A stretch of DNA of 64,000 nt from positions 464,065-528,064 of the forward strand of contig JAQBRE010000002.1 of assembly GCA_028286605.1 (NCBI GenBank), given 5' to 3'. Origin of the DNA: Parcubacteria group bacterium (GTDB taxonomy: Bacteria > Patescibacteriota > Minisyncoccia > Phycocordibacterales > Phycocordibacteraceae). Within the stretch, counting starts at the first letter, position 1, and each line of letters begins with the position of its first letter. This document shows positions 12,637 to 34,610 of the stretch, one piece after another. The notes beneath the pieces are model-generated. The model was not told the DNA's origin, ran no database searches, and worked only from the letters and a program-made list of their open reading frames with translations. Both the position numbers and the translations under genes were made by a program.

Positions 12637-15537
12637 ATGGCAAAGAACAGTTTTGATCATCAGGAGATAGAGAAGAAAGCCCAGGCCAAGTGGGAAGCAT
12701 TGAATATATACGAGAGCGATCTTACGGACACGACGAAAGATCCGTTCTACCTTCTGTTTGAATTCCCGTATCCGTCAGGCGATCTGCATGTGGGGCATTG
12801 GTATGCCTTCGCACTAACCGACATATACGCGCGTTTCCTGCGTATGAAGGGAAAGAATGTGTTGTTTCCTATCGGCTTTGATGCCTTCGGCTTGCCTGCG
12901 GAGAACGCGGCGATAAAGAACGGCGTGAACCCGCGTGATTGGACGTATGCGAACATGGAACGCATGCGTGCGCAGATACGAACGATGGGAACCTCCGTGG
13001 ACTGGAACAAGGAAGTGGTGACCTGCAGCCCTGAATACTACAAGTGGACGCAATGGCTCTTCGCGAAGCTGTATGAGCACAAGCTTGCCGAGCGTCGTAA
13101 TGCATCGGTGAAGTGGTGCCCACATGACCTAACCGTACTCGCGAACGAGCAGGTTATCGATGGTCACTGCGAACGCTGCGGAAGCGTCGTTGAAGAGAAG
13201 TTCCTTACGCAGTGGTTCCTCAAGATCACTGAATACGCCGAACGCTTGCTTACAGATTTGGAACCGCTTCCATGGCGTGAAGATATAAAAGATGCCCAGC
13301 GCGCATGGATAGGAAAGTCTGAAGGCGCGAAGCTTCGCTTCCAGGTGGTGAATGCCGACACGGCGATGGCACCCATAAGCAGTGCAGAAGGCTCAACTGC
13401 AATCGAGGTGTTCACCACGCGCCCTGATACGATATTCGGCGCAACCTATGTAGTGCTCGCCCCGGAACACGCACTTATTGATACATTGATGCCGGTATTC
13501 ACGAATGCAGACGCCGTCAACGCATATCGCGAAACGACTGCACGAAAGACGGAGCGCGAGCGCTCCGAGAATAAGGAGAAGACCGGCGTGCGGCTTGAAG
13601 GCGTAATGGCGGTCAACCCTGCAACGCTGAAAGAGATTCCCATCTACGTCGCAGACTATGTGCTCGGTTCATACGGAACTGGCGCCGTTATGGCCGTACC
13701 TGCGCATGATGAACGTGATTTCGCATTCGCGCAGAAGTTCGATCTCCCTATCGTGCATGTTATTGATCCTGTCACGGGTGAGAAACAGGAGAATCCAACG
13801 GATAAAGCAAAGATTGTCGCACTCGTTGAGAACGCTAAGGGCGAAGTTCTTACCATTCACTGGAAGCCTGAACTTGGCGGGCGATTGCTTGTTGGCGGCA
13901 CTGCAGAAGAGGGCGAAGAGGCAAGCGTAACCGCAGCTCGTGAGATTACAGAAGAAACCGGCTATGCAGACCTTGAACTTGTTGAGCAGGCAGATGAGCA
14001 GGTCCATCATGAATACTTCGCATTCTCGAAGAACAAGGCATGGATAGCGCATTCGACGCTCCTTCACTTCAAGCTGAAGAGCGAGAAGCAGAACGAACAG
14101 GCGCTTGAGGAAGATGAGAAAGGAAAGTTTACGGTTGAGTGGGTTACGCCTGAAGTGGCGGCGCGCGAGATACATGACGAGCTTCACGAATACGTACTAC
14201 AGCGCTTCACGAACTATCAGCCGTATACCGGTAATGGATTACTCCGTAACTCGGGTTCATTCGATGGCCGCAGCAATCAGGAGGTCATGAATGAGATCGT
14301 CGCTGCAGTCGGCGGCGAGATAACGACGAACTATCGCATTCGCGACTGGCTCGTCTCGCGTCAGCGCTATTGGGGATGCCCGATTCCTGTCGTCTATGAT
14401 CCGGAAGGGAATGCGCACCTTGTTCCGACCGAGCACCTACCGTGGCTGCTTCCGGAAGATGTGGACTTTACGCCCGGCGCCGGAGGCGCCGGTAATTCCC
14501 CGCTCGCGACGAGTAAAGAACTTAAAGAGCGCGTCGAGCGCTTGTTCGGCGAAGGCTGGACGCCTGAATATGACACGCTCGATACATTCGTGGATTCTTC
14601 CTGGTATTTCCTTCGGTATCTAGATTCGAAGGACGATCACGATTTCTCGGACCCTGCCATGATGAAGCAATGGCTTCCGGTTAATCGCTATGCCGGCGGC
14701 GCAGAGCATACCACTATGCATCTTCTGTATGCGCGTTTCTTCCAGAAGGCACTGTTCGATCTTGCTCTCGTTCCCACCGCCGAGCCATTTTTCGAACGAT
14801 ACAACCGTGGACTCGTTATGGGTCCTGACGGCCAGAAGATGTCTAAATCGAAAGGGAACGTCATTAACCCTGATGAAGTGGTGGAGAAATACGGCGCAGA
14901 TACTGTGCGCATGTATCTCGCCTTCCTTGGTCCGTACAACGAACCGGGTAATTATCCCTGGAAGCCTGAAGGCGTATTCGCGATGCGAAAGTTCCTGGAC
15001 CGCATCGTCGCCCTTTCCCAGCGCCTCTCGGACGAAGAACCGAATGATGCGACACTGCGCGCCCTTGCTAAGGCAACCGAGAAAGTGGCCCTTGATACCG
15101 AACGCTTCAAGCTGAACACGGCAATCTCTACTCTTATGGTGCTTACGAACGAGCTTGAGGCTTTAGCTTCGGTTCCGAAGAGCGCATATCTTCAGTTGGT
15201 GACGATACTCGCACCCTATGCGCCGCACGTGGCTGAATACCTATTCGAGAGTACGCAGCTAACCAGCACGCATACGGAAATCGATTCCGCGGGTACAAGC
15301 ATCCATCAGCAGCTCTGGCCTGAGGTTGATGAAGCGATGCTGACCAGCGAAACTATCACTATGGGCGTGCAGATCGCTGGAAAACGCCGCGGGGAAGTGA
15401 CGTTGAGCCCTGAAGCGAGCGAAGAAGAAGCGCTTGCGGCAGCCCTTGGGGTGCCAGAAGTGCAGAAGTACCTGGAGGGCCGGCTGCCGGCCCGGGTGAT
15501 ATATGTTCCAGGTCGTATATTGAACCTGATACTCTAG
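12637..15537 (+). CDS. leuS: Leucine--tRNA ligase with an inserted Nudix-box domain
   Basis: HIGH-class motif HVGH (aa 51-54), editing-domain TTRPDT, KMSKS (QKMSKSKG); 966 aa; insertion aa ~385-525 contains exact Nudix box. Confidence 0.95.
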   Translation: MAKNSFDHQEIEKKAQAKWEALNIYESDLTDTTKDPFYLLFEFPYPSGDLHVGHWYAFALTDIYARFLRMKGKNVLFPIGFDAFGLPAENAAIKNGVNPRDWTYANMERMRAQIRTMGTSVDWNKEVVTCSPEYYKWTQWLFAKLYEHKLAERRNASVKWCPHDLTVLANEQVIDGHCERCGSVVEEKFLTQWFLKITEYAERLLTDLEPLPWREDIKDAQRAWIGKSEGAKLRFQVVNADTAMAPISSAEGSTAIEVFTTRPDTIFGATYVVLAPEHALIDTLMPVFTNADAVNAYRETTARKTERERSENKEKTGVRLEGVMAVNPATLKEIPIYVADYVLGSYGTGAVMAVPAHDERDFAFAQKFDLPIVHVIDPVTGEKQENPTDKAKIVALVENAKGEVLTIHWKPELGGRLLVGGTAEEGEEASVTAAREITEETGYADLELVEQADEQVHHEYFAFSKNKAWIAHSTLLHFKLKSEKQNEQALEEDEKGKFTVEWVTPEVAAREIHDELHEYVLQRFTNYQPYTGNGLLRNSGSFDGRSNQEVMNEIVAAVGGEITTNYRIRDWLVSRQRYWGCPIPVVYDPEGNAHLVPTEHLPWLLPEDVDFTPGAGGAGNSPLATSKELKERVERLFGEGWTPEYDTLDTFVDSSWYFLRYLDSKDDHDFSDPAMMKQWLPVNRYAGGAEHTTMHLLYARFFQKALFDLALVPTAEPFFERYNRGLVMGPDGQKMSKSKGNVINPDEVVEKYGADTVRMYLAFLGPYNEPGNYPWKPEGVFAMRKFLDRIVALSQRLSDEEPNDATLRALAKATEKVALDTERFKLNTAISTLMVLTNELEALASVPKSAYLQLVTILAPYAPHVAEYLFESTQLTSTHTEIDSAGTSIHQQLWPEVDEAMLTSETITMGVQIAGKRRGEVTLSPEASEEEALAAALGVPEVQKYLEGRLPARVIYVPGRILNLIL

Positions 15538-28361: not shown

Positions 28362-29969
28362 TTAAATAAGCGGCAGGAGCACCATGAACTCACTTCCTTT
28401 GCCAACACCCTTGCTGCTCACCGTAACCGAGCCGCCATGAGCTCCTACGAAACTCTGCACAAGCGCCAAGCCGATACCCAAACCGTTCTGCGTGCGCTTG
28501 CCGGTACCCACCTGATGAAACGGCGTGAAGATATGCTGGAGCGATTCAGCGGGAATACCTATACCTTCATCCGTAATTTTTATTTCTACAGTACCGTTGT
28601 TCTTCTTCAAGACTACGGTGATCGAATCGCCGGAATCGGAATATTTGGAAGCGTTCGTAATGAGGTTCGAGAAGATCTGTTCAAGGCGAACAGGATCGCC
28701 CGAGACGAATAGAGATTTAATTCCGTCTTTATAGATAAGCGTCTGGTGGCGCTCCTTGATATGGTGCGCGGTGGAAAGTATCGCGCGCTTGATGATCATC
28801 TCGATGTTCACCCTTTCACGCGTAATACTGAGCTTGCCTTCAGAAATACGCGAGACGTCGAGCAGGTCATCAAGAAGACGACGGACGATCTTCATACGGC
28901 TATCCATCATGTCGAGCGTATCCATTTCTTCTGCATCGCGCGGCGCAGAGATCTTCAGGTAGTCGATAGCGCTCACCACGGGCGCGAGCGGGTTACGGAG
29001 CTCATGAGCAAGCACTGCGATAAAATCATTCTTGGCCTGCGATTCCGCACCGATGCGCGCCACTGCGTTTTCAAGAGTAGAAAGCTGTGAGCGCATAAGG
29101 GTCGTGTTCAGGCGACGATCCTCCTCCAGAGAAACGATGATCAGTATGACAATAGAAATAGTGATAAGAAGCGTCTGTACGGTGAAAAGCTGCACGTTGA
29201 ACAATTCCGGAGGTACGGTGCTAACAACATTCCACACGCCGAAAATACCGGTCAGAAGCAACGCAAGCGTAACGAAACGCGGACGCATGCGCAGCGCGAT
29301 CCAGAATAACGGAAAGAGAAGCAGATATATCAGATAGATACCGAACACATCAGCAACCTTGAATACGAAAAGCGCACTGTTTATAACGATAAGCAGTGCG
29401 AATATTACGAGCGTCTCGATAGTCTCTGCGCGTGAGCGGCTAAAGCGTATCTTTCCGAACCAGCGGAGAATAAACGGCGTAACGATAAGAATGCTGAAAA
29501 TAGCACCGGCATAGTGATGGCCCCAGAAGATACTCGTATAGGGTGCTCCCAAACTCAACCGGGTGATAGCGTCGAGAGTGGGAAATACGAGCGATGTGAT
29601 TCCCGCCATCGCAATCAAAGCGAACATATCGCTGTATTTGCGGAAGAGGGGATCAACGTTTGACTTGCGCAATATCGACGCGCCAAGAAGAGCCTGAACG
29701 ACATCTGCTGCGGCGAGTGTTAAAAGATGAGCGGTGGGAATGTGAAAGGCAAGACCGGCTGTGAGCGAAGCGAGCAGCACGAAGGGCCACAAACGCAGAC
29801 CACCGAAGAACAGGGCAGCGATACCGATAGCGGTTGCGGGATATAGCGCCGCCGAAGGCGGCGCAAACGTGGCCGTCAATCCATACACCACGAAATACGA
29901 CACGAAGAATACTGCGGCCACGCGCAGTTGCTGCATCGTATAGATTTGCCGACCATGGAGTTTCATCAT
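28362..29969 (-). CDS. Sensor histidine kinase with polytopic N-terminal membrane domain
   Basis: HisKA H-box VLAHELRNPL; HATPase_c G-boxes DEGIGIP, GLGIGLALVQSFVGAHGGSV. Confidence 0.85.
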   Translation of the reverse strand: MMKLHGRQIYTMQQLRVAAVFFVSYFVVYGLTATFAPPSAALYPATAIGIAALFFGGLRLWPFVLLASLTAGLAFHIPTAHLLTLAAADVVQALLGASILRKSNVDPLFRKYSDMFALIAMAGITSLVFPTLDAITRLSLGAPYTSIFWGHHYAGAIFSILIVTPFILRWFGKIRFSRSRAETIETLVIFALLIVINSALFVFKVADVFGIYLIYLLLFPLFWIALRMRPRFVTLALLLTGIFGVWNVVSTVPPELFNVQLFTVQTLLITISIVILIIVSLEEDRRLNTTLMRSQLSTLENAVARIGAESQAKNDFIAVLAHELRNPLAPVVSAIDYLKISAPRDAEEMDTLDMMDSRMKIVRRLLDDLLDVSRISEGKLSITRERVNIEMIIKRAILSTAHHIKERHQTLIYKDGIKSLFVSGDPVRLEQIFSNLITNASKYSDSGDSITVVLKKNNGTVEIKITDEGIGIPAESLQHIFTPFHQVGTGKRTQNGLGIGLALVQSFVGAHGGSVTVSSKGVGKGSEFMVLLPLI

Positions 29970-30709: not shown

Positions 30710-31582
30710 TTAGTAGAACGAATAGGAGAGCTTGCCGAAAAGTTTCGGCCCCGGTCTCGTCCAGTCCTTCTCAAGCCTGGGAACCGGATTGAGTCGCGCA
30801 TCCCGTTGAGGAAGATACTCGAACCGCGTATCTTCCTTGCTGTACTCGCTGTACGTGGCGCCTAGCGTGCCGACAACGAGGCCGTATAGGAGCCTGCTCA
30901 CGCCTGCTTCGGCATACCACACGTTCTTGTGAGGAACGGCGGTCTCCGAATTGACGTTGTGAACTGAAGTTAAGTTTAGATAGAACTTCGCATCGCTGAG
31001 AATGGGCCCGTTGATGCGAACGCCAGCCATATCCCAGAAGAGCGGATTGTTATGTCCCACCGGAACATCCTTCACCGCCCGAACATAAGGCATGACCTTC
31101 AGCGATCCTACGATTTTCACAGGATAGCCGAGCTGGCCGGTAACCTCGATGTAGTCGTCGCTCATGCCGGCATTGTGGCCCGTGTCGATGAATCGATAGT
31201 TGACGGAGCCCAGATATTCGAAGGTGCCGAGCCGCGTCTGGTCTGCGTTGTGATACGCGAGTTCCAGCTGCTCCTCGTTACCCAAGCCCAAGCGCCCGTA
31301 GCTGCGCCCCGAAGAGAGCATGTTCAGCGTGCGCCAGGTGCCGGTGAAGTGATCGTAAGTGTAGGAGATCGAGGTCTGCGCCACAGTCTTTTCCGGAGCG
31401 AGATCGATCCCATAATTCGGATCGAGATGGCCTTGGGAGAGGCCGATCTCGATCGTGCCGCCGTTACCGTTCGGCGAATTCAATTCTTCCGCATAGGCGG
31501 GAGCTGCGTAGAGAACGACAGCGACCAACACGGAACGTAAGAGAGTTATTCCATTCGTACGCATCGTAGTAAGCCTTTCCAC
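30710..31582 (-). CDS. Secreted protein with signal peptide, possible beta-barrel; ends in aromatic SYSFY
   Basis: Signal peptide LLRSVLVAVVLYAAPAYA; alternating amphipathic strands; assignment as OMP is tentative. Confidence 0.45.
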   Translation of the reverse strand: MERLTTMRTNGITLLRSVLVAVVLYAAPAYAEELNSPNGNGGTIEIGLSQGHLDPNYGIDLAPEKTVAQTSISYTYDHFTGTWRTLNMLSSGRSYGRLGLGNEEQLELAYHNADQTRLGTFEYLGSVNYRFIDTGHNAGMSDDYIEVTGQLGYPVKIVGSLKVMPYVRAVKDVPVGHNNPLFWDMAGVRINGPILSDAKFYLNLTSVHNVNSETAVPHKNVWYAEAGVSRLLYGLVVGTLGATYSEYSKEDTRFEYLPQRDARLNPVPRLEKDWTRPGPKLFGKLSYSFY

Positions 31583-31716
31583 TAACTAAGGAACGGGAGG
31601 GAATACCCTACCCACTGAAGGCAGGTATATAGTAAAAAATACTTTTGTCAAATTATGGGATGAGTACTTCCTATCTTCATGCAATATCCACGAGGAGGAG
31701 GTATCATCAGGCGTAT

Positions 31717-32376
31717 ATGACTACACGACGCTATATTCTCGCTTCGGGCGCAACTCTCGTATTCGTAGCGGTGCTTATGTATGCAGGTACCAGCCTTGCG
31801 CAAGTAAATAATGCTCCGTCTTGCTCGAGCACTATGCAGAACGTAAACGTGAATCAGACCGCGGTCTTCACTGCTTCAGGCGGCAACGGATCCTATGTGT
31901 GGTCTGCTAATAGCTTCAGCTCGATGGGTGATTCTTCAGGCTCGCAGTTTTTAGTAAGCTTCCCGTCATCCGGTACGAATACCGTTCAGGTACGAAGTAA
32001 CGGCCAGACAAGCACGTGCTCGATTACGGTTCTTCCTGCGACGAGCAGCGATTCGAATTTCGTTTCGAACAGTTCCTCATCCGGCACGCTTGAATGTCTT
32101 CCTAGCTCGCAAAGCGTTGCAGCAGGACAGACGGCCTCTCTCACTGCCACCGGCGGCAACGGTTCCTACTTCTGGAACATACCGGAGCTCTCGCTCAATA
32201 ACCCTACTGGTACCGGCTCATACGTAACGTATGTTACTCCGGGCACCCGTACCGTTACGGTAACGAGCGGAGGCGCTTCTGCGACGTGCTCCATAGATGT
32301 GATTGGCACCGCAGTTACGCCCGTGGTTACCGTGCCTGGCCTACCCAATACTGGTGGTGGCTATGGCAAGTGGTAG
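31717..32376 (+). CDS. Secreted tandem-domain protein ending in LPNTG motif (putative sortase substrate); start at ATG 31717 after GGAGGAGG
   Basis: Signal peptide; two ~90-aa internal repeats (ASGGNGSYVWSA...TCSITV / ATGGNGSYFWNI...TCSIDV); C-terminal VPGLPNTGGGYGKW. Confidence 0.6.
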   Translation: MTTRRYILASGATLVFVAVLMYAGTSLAQVNNAPSCSSTMQNVNVNQTAVFTASGGNGSYVWSANSFSSMGDSSGSQFLVSFPSSGTNTVQVRSNGQTSTCSITVLPATSSDSNFVSNSSSSGTLECLPSSQSVAAGQTASLTATGGNGSYFWNIPELSLNNPTGTGSYVTYVTPGTRTVTVTSGGASATCSIDVIGTAVTPVVTVPGLPNTGGGYGKW

Positions 32377-32379
32377 CGC

Positions 32380-33051
32380 ATGAATAAGGGACGCTCGCTT
32401 TCCTGGCAGGCAGCGCTCGTGCTTCCTCTTGCTGCAGGCTTTTTCGGTACCGCGATATCAATCGTGATAAGCGATAGCGTGCATGCCGTGATGAACGATG
32501 GCGCGAGCGCGCTGCAGAAGATAGCTACCACGACCGCAGCCTCCGTGCCTACGACGGTTTCTGTGCAGACTGATGACACTACCGCTGCTGGGAATCCTGT
32601 ACGTCTTATCATTCCCTCAATCGGCATTGATGCTGCGGTGCAATCGGTAGGTATTGCCGAAACGGGTACCGGAGATATCGGTACTCCAAATAATGCGACA
32701 GATGTCGCATGGTATAACCGCGGGCCGGTGCCCGGATCTCCTGGTATCGCTATTATCGACGGCCATCTTGATACCCATACCGTTCCTGAAGCGGTGTTCT
32801 ATCATCTTGGAGATCTCACCGAAGGGGAGAGCATCTATGTAACGGACCGAGCCGGCGTGCAGCAACGGTTCGTGGTTACGGGGCGACAGCAACTTGCCTA
32901 CGATGCAGACACCAGCATGCTTTTCGTACATTCTAATACGCCACAGATTGCCCTTATAACATGCGCGGGCGATTGGGTGCCGGATAAGCACGAGTATACC
33001 GATCGCGTCGTGGTATTCGCCACGCTCGCAAACGAGAGCGTGCATATCTAA
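32380..33051 (+). CDS. Sortase family transpeptidase
   Basis: N-terminal signal anchor; conserved His (IIDGHLD), TLxTC-type catalytic Cys (IALITCAGD), conserved Arg (RVVVFA). Confidence 0.8.
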   Translation: MNKGRSLSWQAALVLPLAAGFFGTAISIVISDSVHAVMNDGASALQKIATTTAASVPTTVSVQTDDTTAAGNPVRLIIPSIGIDAAVQSVGIAETGTGDIGTPNNATDVAWYNRGPVPGSPGIAIIDGHLDTHTVPEAVFYHLGDLTEGESIYVTDRAGVQQRFVVTGRQQLAYDADTSMLFVHSNTPQIALITCAGDWVPDKHEYTDRVVVFATLANESVHI

Positions 33052-33066
33052 AAACCTGAACGGCGT

Positions 33067-34533
33067 TTAACCCTTTGATGGTTGGTATCGTAGAAGAGTG
33101 AGCGTCATGCCAGCATACTGTGGTTTCAGCTCCGCCATGACAACGTTTGAGAATGGGTCGCTCTTGTAGAGCGCCGTCGTCATTAGTACGTACATCGGAC
33201 TCGTGGTGCTATAGCCATTCTGAATGAGAATAAAAGGATCCTTGTCTTTACTATAATATCTAATAGTGTCCCAGTCTGGATCATAGAAGGTAGCGATCGG
33301 AAGTGAGGGCTGCGTGCTGAGTATCGTACCAATGGTATGTTCTTCATATATCACTGCCTGCGGGCTACTGAAGTCAGATTGATAGTGAAACCCGACGTAT
33401 ATGCTGTTAGCAAACCCAAGTAGGACAATGACAATGAGTGAGGTCCAAAAGAATCGCTTATGAAGGATGGTCCTGCACTGCACGTACCAGCGTTCAAAGA
33501 GTAGAGCACTGATGATCGAGAAAAAGATAATACCTGGAAGTGCGTAATACGCGATCTTCGTTTGAGCTACCGCGAAGACTAGGAAGATGAAACAGACGCT
33601 CGCTACCAAAGCAGCCACCGTGCGATAGCGATTACCGAGGAATTTCTTGAAAAATAACGAGAGGATACTTGCAAGAAATAAGACACTCCACGGGAACGCA
33701 AAAAGAAATGTGTCCCGAACATAAACCCAATTGGATTGATAGCCGCCACCATTTACGTTTGAAACGAATCTCTGGAACACCTGATGAAAGAGGTAATCCT
33801 GCCAGAATATAAAACCGAACAAATACGTCTCATATACATGCCACGGCGCCAAAATAAGCAGCCCTATTGCTGCTCCGATCCAAAGGAATTTGCTTTTTAG
33901 CCAAGAAAAATCCTTATCGAATAAGGAAAAAATGATAATGGTTGAAATACCTAATGTGCCGATGATGCTTTTGAACATAATACCGACGGCCACTCCAGCC
34001 AGCACCCCCATGAGCCATCGCTTGTCCTTCTTTGCTCGCAGATAACAATAGAATGTGAAAAGAATTGCCATCATTACGCCAGATTCAATACGAAGCTGTC
34101 GTGCTGATTCGATGAAATCTCCGGTTCCTGCAAGGATAAAACCAGCAAGTATAGCTACGTAGGGACTTGCGGTCAGTTCAAACGCAATTGCCGTAACGAG
34201 CAGAATACTGATAAGACCCAGTACCGCAGCAGGGAGGCGGTAGGAGAGCTCTGGATCATGAAATACTTTGTCAGTCCCGAGCGCAAGCCAGAAATAGAGG
34301 GGAGGCTTGTTGAACCATGGCTGACCTTGGTCATAAAGCACGAAAAATGATGAGTGCTGGACGGTGCTTGCCAGCACCTCCGCATAGATAGCTTCGTCGT
34401 AGTCGGCAAATGGTGATTTCTGAAGATTCCAGAAGAGGAGGCAGGAGCTTGTTAGTAGTAGGGCACCAAGCAATACGAAAACAAGCTTGAAATTCGCTTG
34501 AGCAGCATTAATTAACGGCCCTTTAGGCGGCAT
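33067..34533 (-). CDS. GT-C family glycosyltransferase (ArnT/PMT-like, dolichyl/undecaprenyl-phosphate-sugar dependent)
   Basis: ~11 TM; first-loop DE motif FADYDEAIYAEV typical of GT39/GT83. Confidence 0.75.
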   Translation of the reverse strand: MPPKGPLINAAQANFKLVFVLLGALLLTSSCLLFWNLQKSPFADYDEAIYAEVLASTVQHSSFFVLYDQGQPWFNKPPLYFWLALGTDKVFHDPELSYRLPAAVLGLISILLVTAIAFELTASPYVAILAGFILAGTGDFIESARQLRIESGVMMAILFTFYCYLRAKKDKRWLMGVLAGVAVGIMFKSIIGTLGISTIIIFSLFDKDFSWLKSKFLWIGAAIGLLILAPWHVYETYLFGFIFWQDYLFHQVFQRFVSNVNGGGYQSNWVYVRDTFLFAFPWSVLFLASILSLFFKKFLGNRYRTVAALVASVCFIFLVFAVAQTKIAYYALPGIIFFSIISALLFERWYVQCRTILHKRFFWTSLIVIVLLGFANSIYVGFHYQSDFSSPQAVIYEEHTIGTILSTQPSLPIATFYDPDWDTIRYYSKDKDPFILIQNGYSTTSPMYVLMTTALYKSDPFSNVVMAELKPQYAGMTLTLLRYQPSKG

Positions 34534-34610
34534 ACATTCTATACGTAGCCAGATTGCAAAACGTTGCATCGTACACAGGAAGAGCCCAGAACATATTCGC
34601 GACAGAGTAT

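Follow-up and report, generated by a model that had tools for sequence, protein, structure and literature searches.

A class-F-like sortase gene of a Parcubacteria bacterium next to a putative substrate gene with a conserved, short LPNTG sorting signal

The gene pair and the closest described sortase systems

For three decades, the textbook requirement for a sortase substrate has been a tripartite signal made of an LPXTG pentapeptide, a hydrophobic segment and a charged tail. Here, we analyzed a stretch of 64,000 nucleotides (the window; positions 464,065 to 528,064 of contig JAQBRE010000002.1, assembly GCA_028286605.1) from a Parcubacteria group bacterium, in which a gene for a secreted protein with an LPNTG pentapeptide near its C-terminus immediately precedes a sortase gene. 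The two genes probably constitute a dedicated cassette of a class-F-like sortase and its substrate, using a minimal sorting signal devoid of a membrane-retention segment. As in the canonical signal of Gram-positive bacteria, the window protein combines an N-terminal signal peptide, a Pro/Thr-rich linker and a strict C-terminal LPxTG. By contrast, six residues alone follow its motif, and they form a conserved stub of their own, GG[YF]G[QKRH], instead of a hydrophobic and K/R tail.

Enzyme and substrate genes are adjacent and co-oriented, as in the operon-encoded pairs of class B (SrtB-IsdC), of class D in Bacillus and of the class C pilin sortases, and the system is likewise small and dedicated, unlike a housekeeping sortase whose many substrates are encoded at scattered places. 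However, the substrates of those pairs keep the full membrane-anchor tail, and we observed here neither a pilin Lys motif nor a CnaA/CnaB fold. Sortag substrates are engineered soluble proteins that end in LPETG and a few residues, as artificial constructs used in vitro. The window protein shares with them a soluble character, an LPxTG motif and a short, diffusible, Gly-rich leaving group, and LPNT-GGG resembles the product of a ligation with an oligoglycine nucleophile; unlike sortags, it carries a signal that occurs in nature, has been conserved and lies beside the gene of its enzyme. A literature search for sortase substrates with a conserved stub tail or a short-tail LPXTG returned no description. 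Sortase-substrate cassettes are already known, and the one with a minimal sorting signal is a variant for which we found no published description.

Bacteria of the Candidate Phyla Radiation (CPR) are enriched in sortases (PMC6744442). A CPR pilus that was described recently, Pam, is built through donor-strand exchange, and no sortase takes part. P. acnes SrtF is a known member of class F, and the physiological functions of this class are still called unknown (PMC13251363, PMC8225981). When the window sortase was compared with the models of the sortase classes, class F (NF033748; Propionibacterium/Cutibacterium acnes SrtF, which recognises LPXTG) gave the best score, with 121 bits over the whole model (positions 6-154 of 155), and the next best class was GN with 30.6 bits. 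This score is below the curated class F cutoff of 166 bits, as are those of ten related sortases (115-129 bits). One relative (P0108) bears the NCBI name 'class F sortase', and the window sortase (P0095) is 100% identical to the NCBI entry 'MAG: peptidase sortase [Parcubacteria group bacterium]', a protein of a metagenome-assembled genome (MAG). Judged by their sequences, the window sortase and its relatives are a divergent sister group of class F found in Patescibacteria. They resemble class F in the His-Cys-Arg triad, the N-terminal anchor and the LPxTG-type motif of the partner, and differ from it in having a dedicated upstream substrate without a membrane-spanning part.

The general sortase family PF04203 was matched with 69.9 bits (gathering cutoff 26.6, E 2.1e-19, residues 77-216). 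The catalytic triad is intact: H129 (in IDGHLD), C195 (in LITCAG) and R209 were invariant in 32 homologues and in 23 sortases adjoining genes of the substrate family. The AlphaFold2 (AF2) model of the enzyme, with a predicted local distance difference test score (pLDDT) of 81.5, places a disordered linker of about 40 residues (33-72) between the membrane anchor and the catalytic barrel, with pLDDT values of about 47-57 for residues 31-70, which drop under 50 at 38-47 and 59-65. Foldseek against the PDB matched the barrel about equally to sortases of classes C, A, E and D (E ~1e-9, TM 0.5-0.78), and a phmmer search of the sortase against PDB sequences returned nothing at E <= 0.01.

Conservation of the short signal and its pairing with sortases

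The substrate open reading frame (ORF) opens with an ATG at 31717, reads MTTRRYILASGATLVFVAVLMYAGTSLAQ...VPGLPNTGGGYGKW and ends ...PGLPNTGGGYGKW-TAG, with the stop at 32374-32376. As the homologues open with MTTRRY... or MKTNQKY..., this ATG is the correct start of the gene, and a TTG further upstream (31645) is not. Since only GGYGKW follows the LPNTG (residues 209-213), there is no room for a membrane-spanning hydrophobic segment, and the sortase ATG lies 3 nt past the stop. A positively charged tail is missing as well, a lone Lys occupying the penultimate position. The NCBIfam LPXTG-anchor models gave no match in the window protein, nor in the positive controls with canonical tails (P0087, P0092, P0223 and P0266).

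Among 5.8 billion proteins searched, we found 94 homologues, most of them about 200-219 aa long and, where the source was named, from Parcubacteria, Paceibacterota or Patescibacteria MAGs. A C-terminal LPxTG was present in 92 of the 94, and in 86 of these 92 (40-99% identity) only 3-9 residues followed the motif, most often five (57 homologues) or six (25). The family consensus is P-G-L-P-N-T-G-G-G-[Y/F]-G-[Q/K/R/H], at times followed by W or Q. Among the 86 short-tail homologues, the motif columns were L 75, F 10 or M 1, P 86, N 69 or D 12, T 86 and G 85, and the stub columns G 75/86, G 80/86, Y/F 77/86 and G 68/86, so that the stub was more strongly conserved than the linker preceding the motif. 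At 17 distinct loci, the codons of the stub differed freely at synonymous sites while the amino acids were constant, and therefore selection acts on the peptide and not on the DNA or on a ribosome-binding site. A role of the tail Gly codons as ribosome-binding site of the sortase gene was rejected on this synonymous variation and on a gap between the two genes that ranges, among homologous pairs, from overlapping to about 40 nt.

Distant relatives (P0086, P0087, P0091-93 and L047-L051) carry LPNTG with a transmembrane segment and K/R, and for this reason the ancestor probably had a full canonical signal, with an ancestral truncation as the probable evolutionary origin of the stub. Other stub types were found beside GGG[YF]G[Q], namely GALPE, GF[ADQ]P.. 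and SDPNRKT. Some of them resemble the first residues of full tails elsewhere, such as LPNTGFAPNGW... and LPPTGSDPNA..., each ahead of a transmembrane segment, which suggests that full tails may have been truncated more than once. At one of the distant loci, assigned to the archaeon GW2011_AR5 (JWKQ01000003.1, L049:4809-5366; DPANN-type assignment), the gene directly ahead of a homologous sortase gene encodes an Ig homologue whose sorting signal is complete, with LPNTG, transmembrane segment and tail.

We analyzed the pairing with sortases on contigs that hold homologues and on 80 loci from species-representative genomes. A sortase ORF was immediately downstream on the same strand at 19 of the 19 distinct short-tail loci that have downstream DNA. 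Because this was found at every homologous locus examined, an LPxTG ending beside a sortase is not due to chance. Clustering of the neighbourhoods gave substrate and sortase as the only conserved genes; a third conserved component was rejected, the clustering having yielded only variable signalling genes. Upstream of six homologous sortases that were checked, we observed short-tail genes of the substrate family in four cases (three two-domain, one single-domain), a GH5 cellulase gene in one, and no adjacent substrate in the last. The cellulase (472 aa, PF00150; L089:1568-2986 on contig DAOTTL010000527.1, assembly GCA_034438135.1) lies directly upstream of a sortase (P0130) that is 36% identical to the window sortase. 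It ends PPGLPPTGSDPNRKT, a stub-tailed LPxTG on an unrelated, enzymatic substrate, and its stub resembles a cut-down version of the LPPTGSDPNA... tails, with transmembrane segment and RRR, of other loci.

A census took in 80 metagenome loci chosen for their sortase, with a short tail defined as <=12 residues after LPxTG. The upstream ORF had a short tail at 24 loci and LPxTG with a hydrophobic stretch and K/R at 23, and was intermediate at 2; 3 further loci were too short. Where the sortase scored >136 bits against that of the window, each of the 18 loci with an LPxTG had a short tail, and the sortases that go with long tails were all more distant. A small neighbour-joining tree, built from 23 cassette sortases of which only four are long-tail, gave 76% bootstrap to the split between long-tail and short-tail enzymes. 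The canonical-tail relatives occupy the same position beside homologous sortases.

The substrate itself gave a Pfam match to a PKD-type immunoglobulin (Ig) domain (PF00801, E 6e-8), and its AF2 model (pLDDT 82.5) comprises an N-terminal helix (residues 3-23) and two beta-sandwiches. A local alignment of the two halves scored 143, compared to 35 +/- 6 in 300 shuffles. Cys36, Cys101, Cys127 and Cys191 are invariant and, since one pair brackets each Ig domain, this suggests one disulfide per domain. Foldseek matched the protein to tandem bacterial Ig domains (intimin, invasin, LigA), phage decoration proteins and S-layer proteins, with no pilin among the top 50 matches. The substrate linkers are Ser/Thr-rich, and Pro- and Thr-rich before the motif. 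The mature region before the motif contains no Lys in the window protein, nor in 28 of 86 relatives, and the single common Lys position of the family is an Arg in the window protein. Pilin-type Lys isopeptide polymerisation was therefore excluded, a conserved pilin-motif Lys nucleophile finding no support in the substrate family.

The signal peptide, assigned by inspection of the sequence, would be cleaved after Ala28, which is conserved in at least 90% of 46 aligned family sequences. Gln29 (31801-31803), directly after the predicted SLA-Q cleavage site, is invariant in the same sequences, although a +1 position is seldom conserved so strictly; this Gln might serve in pyroglutamate capping or as an acceptor. 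The Ig-like domain of the substrate is also the repeat module of giant surface proteins of <=5426 aa with <=47 matched stretches, as given by a profile search with this domain (4019 hits, P0131-P0275). Several of these proteins (P0159, P0165 and P0186) end in PKTG with a hydrophobic/transmembrane segment and K/R, which may be a variant sorting signal.

A preliminary description of this DNA, made from its letters, had pointed out an LPNTG substrate lacking an anchor tail ahead of the sortase, two internal repeats in it, and a signal anchor at the N-terminus of the sortase, and the present results agree on each point. Its suggestion of a non-canonical sorting signal is strengthened by the conservation of the stub and by its constant pairing with a sortase. 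As for the class of the enzyme, which it had proposed to settle by profile models, class F is borne out as the best match and formal membership by the curated cutoff is not.

Proposed mechanism and alternative readings

In the mechanism that we propose for a dedicated cassette with a minimal signal, the substrate would be exported by the Sec pathway through its N-terminal signal peptide, and the catalytic domain of the sortase would stand outside the membrane on its flexible linker of about 40 residues. The tethered domain would bind LPNTG and the Gly-rich stub and cut between Thr and Gly, releasing a hexapeptide (here the heptapeptide GGGYGKW) with formation of a thioacyl-enzyme. The last step would be transfer of the Ig-domain protein to an amine, for which the wall or a peptidoglycan precursor is the likeliest acceptor. 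Retention of the substrate near the enzyme would not depend on a C-terminal membrane anchor and would require other means; candidates are co-expression and co-insertion, the genes being 3 nt apart, a signal peptide that is transiently uncleaved or slowly cleaved, and confinement by the envelope or S-layer. The leaving-group site of a sortase is also its nucleophile site. Given this double use and the conserved GGG, one may speculate that the enzyme accepts Gly-rich nucleophiles.

Several points weigh against this proposal. Cleavage and wall linkage of the substrate are predictions, and so are the acceptor and the means of retention that we infer. Since the score of the window sortase is below the class F cutoff (121 vs 166 bits), its specificity is not transferable from the characterised enzymes. 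No upstream LPxTG gene was detectable at 28 of the 80 census loci, where other positions or variant motifs may hide one, so that in the clade at large substrate and sortase genes are often, but not always, adjacent. Deletion of the hydrophobic/charged part in S. aureus protein A reportedly leads to secretion. That part of the canonical signal is described as halting translocation so that the sortase can act (PMC4617865). As this halt would be missing here, a soluble substrate might simply escape.

The preliminary description had also noted that the two genes share a reading frame across a TAG-CGC-ATG junction, which is correct (663 nt from the substrate ATG at 31717 to the sortase ATG at 32380), and had considered that read-through or suppression of the stop codon might fuse the substrate to the N-terminus of the sortase and so borrow its membrane anchor, TAG-CGC being the only separation between the two frames. 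An in-frame junction taken alone is expected by chance in one of three gene pairs. Both genes share one frame in 9 of the 19 pairs from genomes and in 9 of the 24 from metagenomes (frame classes 9/7/3 and 9/6/9), and this total of 18/43 is not clearly above the chance expectation of one third. In the closest relative (L001, 68% identity) the sortase is in the +1 frame with a 14-nt overlap with the substrate gene, and a second in-frame stop interrupts several of the in-frame pairs (L009 and L012). The substrate genes of the pairs stop with TAG or TAA, never with the leaky TGA, and TAG is an ordinary stop codon here, because it ends 27 of the 72 long ORFs in the window, LeuRS included. Across the 43 pairs, we observed no conserved in-frame downstream ORF with a leaky stop context of the kind linked to programmed read-through or TAG reassignment. 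In a fusion, moreover, basic residues would be left outside the membrane and the catalytic domain would be in the cytoplasm, non-functional as a sortase, because the sortase helix placed after an exported N-terminal part runs from outside to inside. Read-through is thus extremely unlikely for the window pair and is refuted as a conserved mechanism. Practically no chance is left either for the loss of a standard anchor through pseudogene formation, recent decay, or a mistake in sequencing or assembly. The preliminary description had named decay of an ancestral longer gene as a further explanation, had allowed for a sequencing error in the TAG, and had turned to orthologues for an intact anchor. 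Such an anchor exists in the few distant relatives described above (among them P0086, P0087 and P0091-93), but 86 of the 92 relatives, from independent assemblies, share the stub ending without an anchor. They include P0001, an independent assembly whose protein is 99% identical and has an identical C-terminal end. No space for an anchor is left ahead of the sortase gene, and the tail is under purifying selection at the amino-acid level. Decay and error are refuted for the window gene, and its sequence indicates that the present substrate gene is not a decayed copy.

The remaining alternatives accept the gene pair and differ in its function. There is a small but real chance that the LPNT end is joined in a soluble phase to the amine of another protein rather than to peptidoglycan, either head-to-tail onto the new N-terminus created by signal-peptide cleavage, giving post-translational strings of Ig domains, or onto a non-wall acceptor. 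Engineered and natural ligases of soluble substrates (sortagging, asparaginyl-endopeptidase) use short diffusible leaving groups. Ligation or polymerisation of this kind would suit the invariant Gln29 just past the predicted cleavage site, a tandem Ig rod modelled with its N- and C-termini at opposite ends, the existence of the same domain in genetically encoded arrays of up to 47 repeats, and the pairing of pilin and sortase genes that is typical of pilus operons. However, the family has no conserved Lys, the fold is a generic Big/Ig one and not that of CnaA/CnaB pilins, N-terminal Gln tends to cyclise, and we know of no sortase that uses the alpha-amine of an N-terminal Gln. We regard as equally improbable, though worth stating, the broader idea of an undescribed sortase mode in which a soluble, fully translocated substrate with a diffusible Gly-rich leaving group is ligated to something besides the cell's own lipid II. 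Candidates would be head-to-tail joining into Ig-domain fibres built after translation or attachment to another surface, possibly that of a host, since the cultivated CPR bacteria are episymbionts; if this mode were true, the switch to it would be marked by the missing membrane-retention segment. A slim chance goes to maturation or release only, with the sortase acting mainly as a hydrolase, or another protease, trimming the stub so that the Ig protein is freed or bound non-covalently, or with the freed Gly-rich hexapeptide being itself the product, for instance a signal. Without membrane retention, water could compete as acceptor, and the neighbourhoods are rich in signalling genes (two-component 8, ECF 7 and PAS 7 of 19 loci). 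These neighbours are not positionally conserved, however, the stub is nearly identical in distant species, unlike typical signalling peptides, and the strong conservation of the Ig domains argues that the protein itself is the functional product; sortases also favour transpeptidation when an acceptor is present. That the LPNTG ending is no sortase substrate, its adjacency to the enzyme being coincidental or regulatory, seems very unlikely. The ending does lack two of the three elements that make up a canonical signal, and the substrate role is read from sequence, but within the motif Pro, Thr and Gly show no or almost no variation across 86 sequences, the sortase is paired with the short-tail gene at 19/19 loci, and relatives with the full signal stand in the same position beside homologous sortases.

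Genomic context and implications

The features of the cassette are presented in Table 1. Substrate and sortase are probably in one operon, as their 3-nt spacing alone suggests, and a scan for promoter and terminator consensus sequences over 31400-33300 found none.

Table 1. Coordinates of the substrate-sortase cassette and its parts in the window
Feature	Position	Strand	Description	Basis
Substrate gene	31717..32376	+	219-aa secreted protein, two Ig-like domains, end LPNTGGGYGKW-TAG	ORF, PKD match, homologues, AF2
Predicted Sec signal peptide	31717..31800	+	residues 1-28: MTTRR, 19-aa hydrophobic core, SLA-Q	inspection; AF2 helix 3-23
Ig-like domain 1	31819..32034	+	residues 35-106, Cys36/Cys101 borders, GGNGxYxW signature	AF2 strands 35-106, pLDDT 90-95
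Ig-like domain 2	32092..32304	+	residues 126-196, Cys127/Cys191 borders	invariant columns, repeat, AF2, Foldseek
LPNTG sortase recognition pentapeptide (putative)	32341..32355	+	residues 209-213	sequence; kept in 86 short-tail homologues
Stub tail GGYGKW and TAG stop	32356..32376	+	without hydrophobic segment or charged tail	family consensus
Spacer CGC	32377..32379	+	3 nt, stop codon to sortase ATG	in-frame junction judged coincidental
Sortase gene	32380..33051	+	223-aa class-F-like cysteine transpeptidase	PF04203, NF033748, AF2, Foldseek
Sortase N-terminal membrane anchor	32404..32475	+	residues 9-32	AF2 helix
Sortase catalytic beta-barrel	32596..33045	+	residues 73-222	pLDDT >90 for most of domain
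Sortase catalytic residues	32764-32766; 32962-32964; 33004-33006	+	His129; Cys195 (LITC); Arg209	

The other genes of the window are of an ordinary chromosomal kind and include those for ATP synthase, LeuRS, AlaRS, LexA, MreB, VanY, a MurA-type enzyme and a GH18 enzyme that carries a peptidoglycan-binding domain (PG_binding). Because MurA-type, VanY, MreB and PG_binding genes are present, the organism makes peptidoglycan. The LeuRS (12637-15537, +, 966 aa) carries an unusual insertion, a NUDIX domain (PF00293, E 1.7e-11, residues 393-523) just past the editing domain.

On the opposite strand, divergent from the substrate gene, 30710-31582 (-) encodes a 290-aa secreted protein that ends ...KLSYSFY; such an aromatic terminus recalls the beta-barrel proteins of outer membranes. 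Searches of Pfam, NCBIfam and the PDB sequences gave no match to it, and just 6 homologues were found, each in related Parcubacteria. A function of this neighbour as an outer-membrane-like retention factor was considered and is unsupported, given these 6 homologues and the absence of tight linkage to the cassette at L087. Convergent with the sortase gene, 33067-34569 (-) encodes a 500-aa membrane glycosyltransferase of the PMT_2/GT39 type, and a GT87 glycosyltransferase gene occupies the equivalent position at another locus (L094).

Within about 4 kb of the cassettes, signalling genes were enriched among the 19 loci, with two-component systems in 8, extracytoplasmic function (ECF) sigma factors in 7 and cytoplasmic PAS or PAS-histidine-kinase proteins in 7. 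Such neighbours were seen at L003, L005, L012, L014, L011, L016 and L017 and in the window (28362-29969), where a MASE1 histidine kinase is one of the 8 two-component cases.

If the short signal functions as we propose, a widespread natural family, apparently part of a whole subclade of Patescibacteria sortases, has dropped the membrane-retention part of the sorting signal and kept a stub. This would challenge the view that C-terminal membrane retention is obligatory and raises the question of how CPR envelopes hold substrates near the enzyme. The poorly understood class-F-like sortases thereby gain a concrete dedicated substrate, and the model lends itself to in vitro tests on two small recombinant proteins or on the substrate peptide Abz-VTVPGLPNTGGGYGKW. 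The pair of an enzyme and a tag, LPNTGGG[YF]G, evolved for short tails, may also interest users of sortase-mediated ligation.

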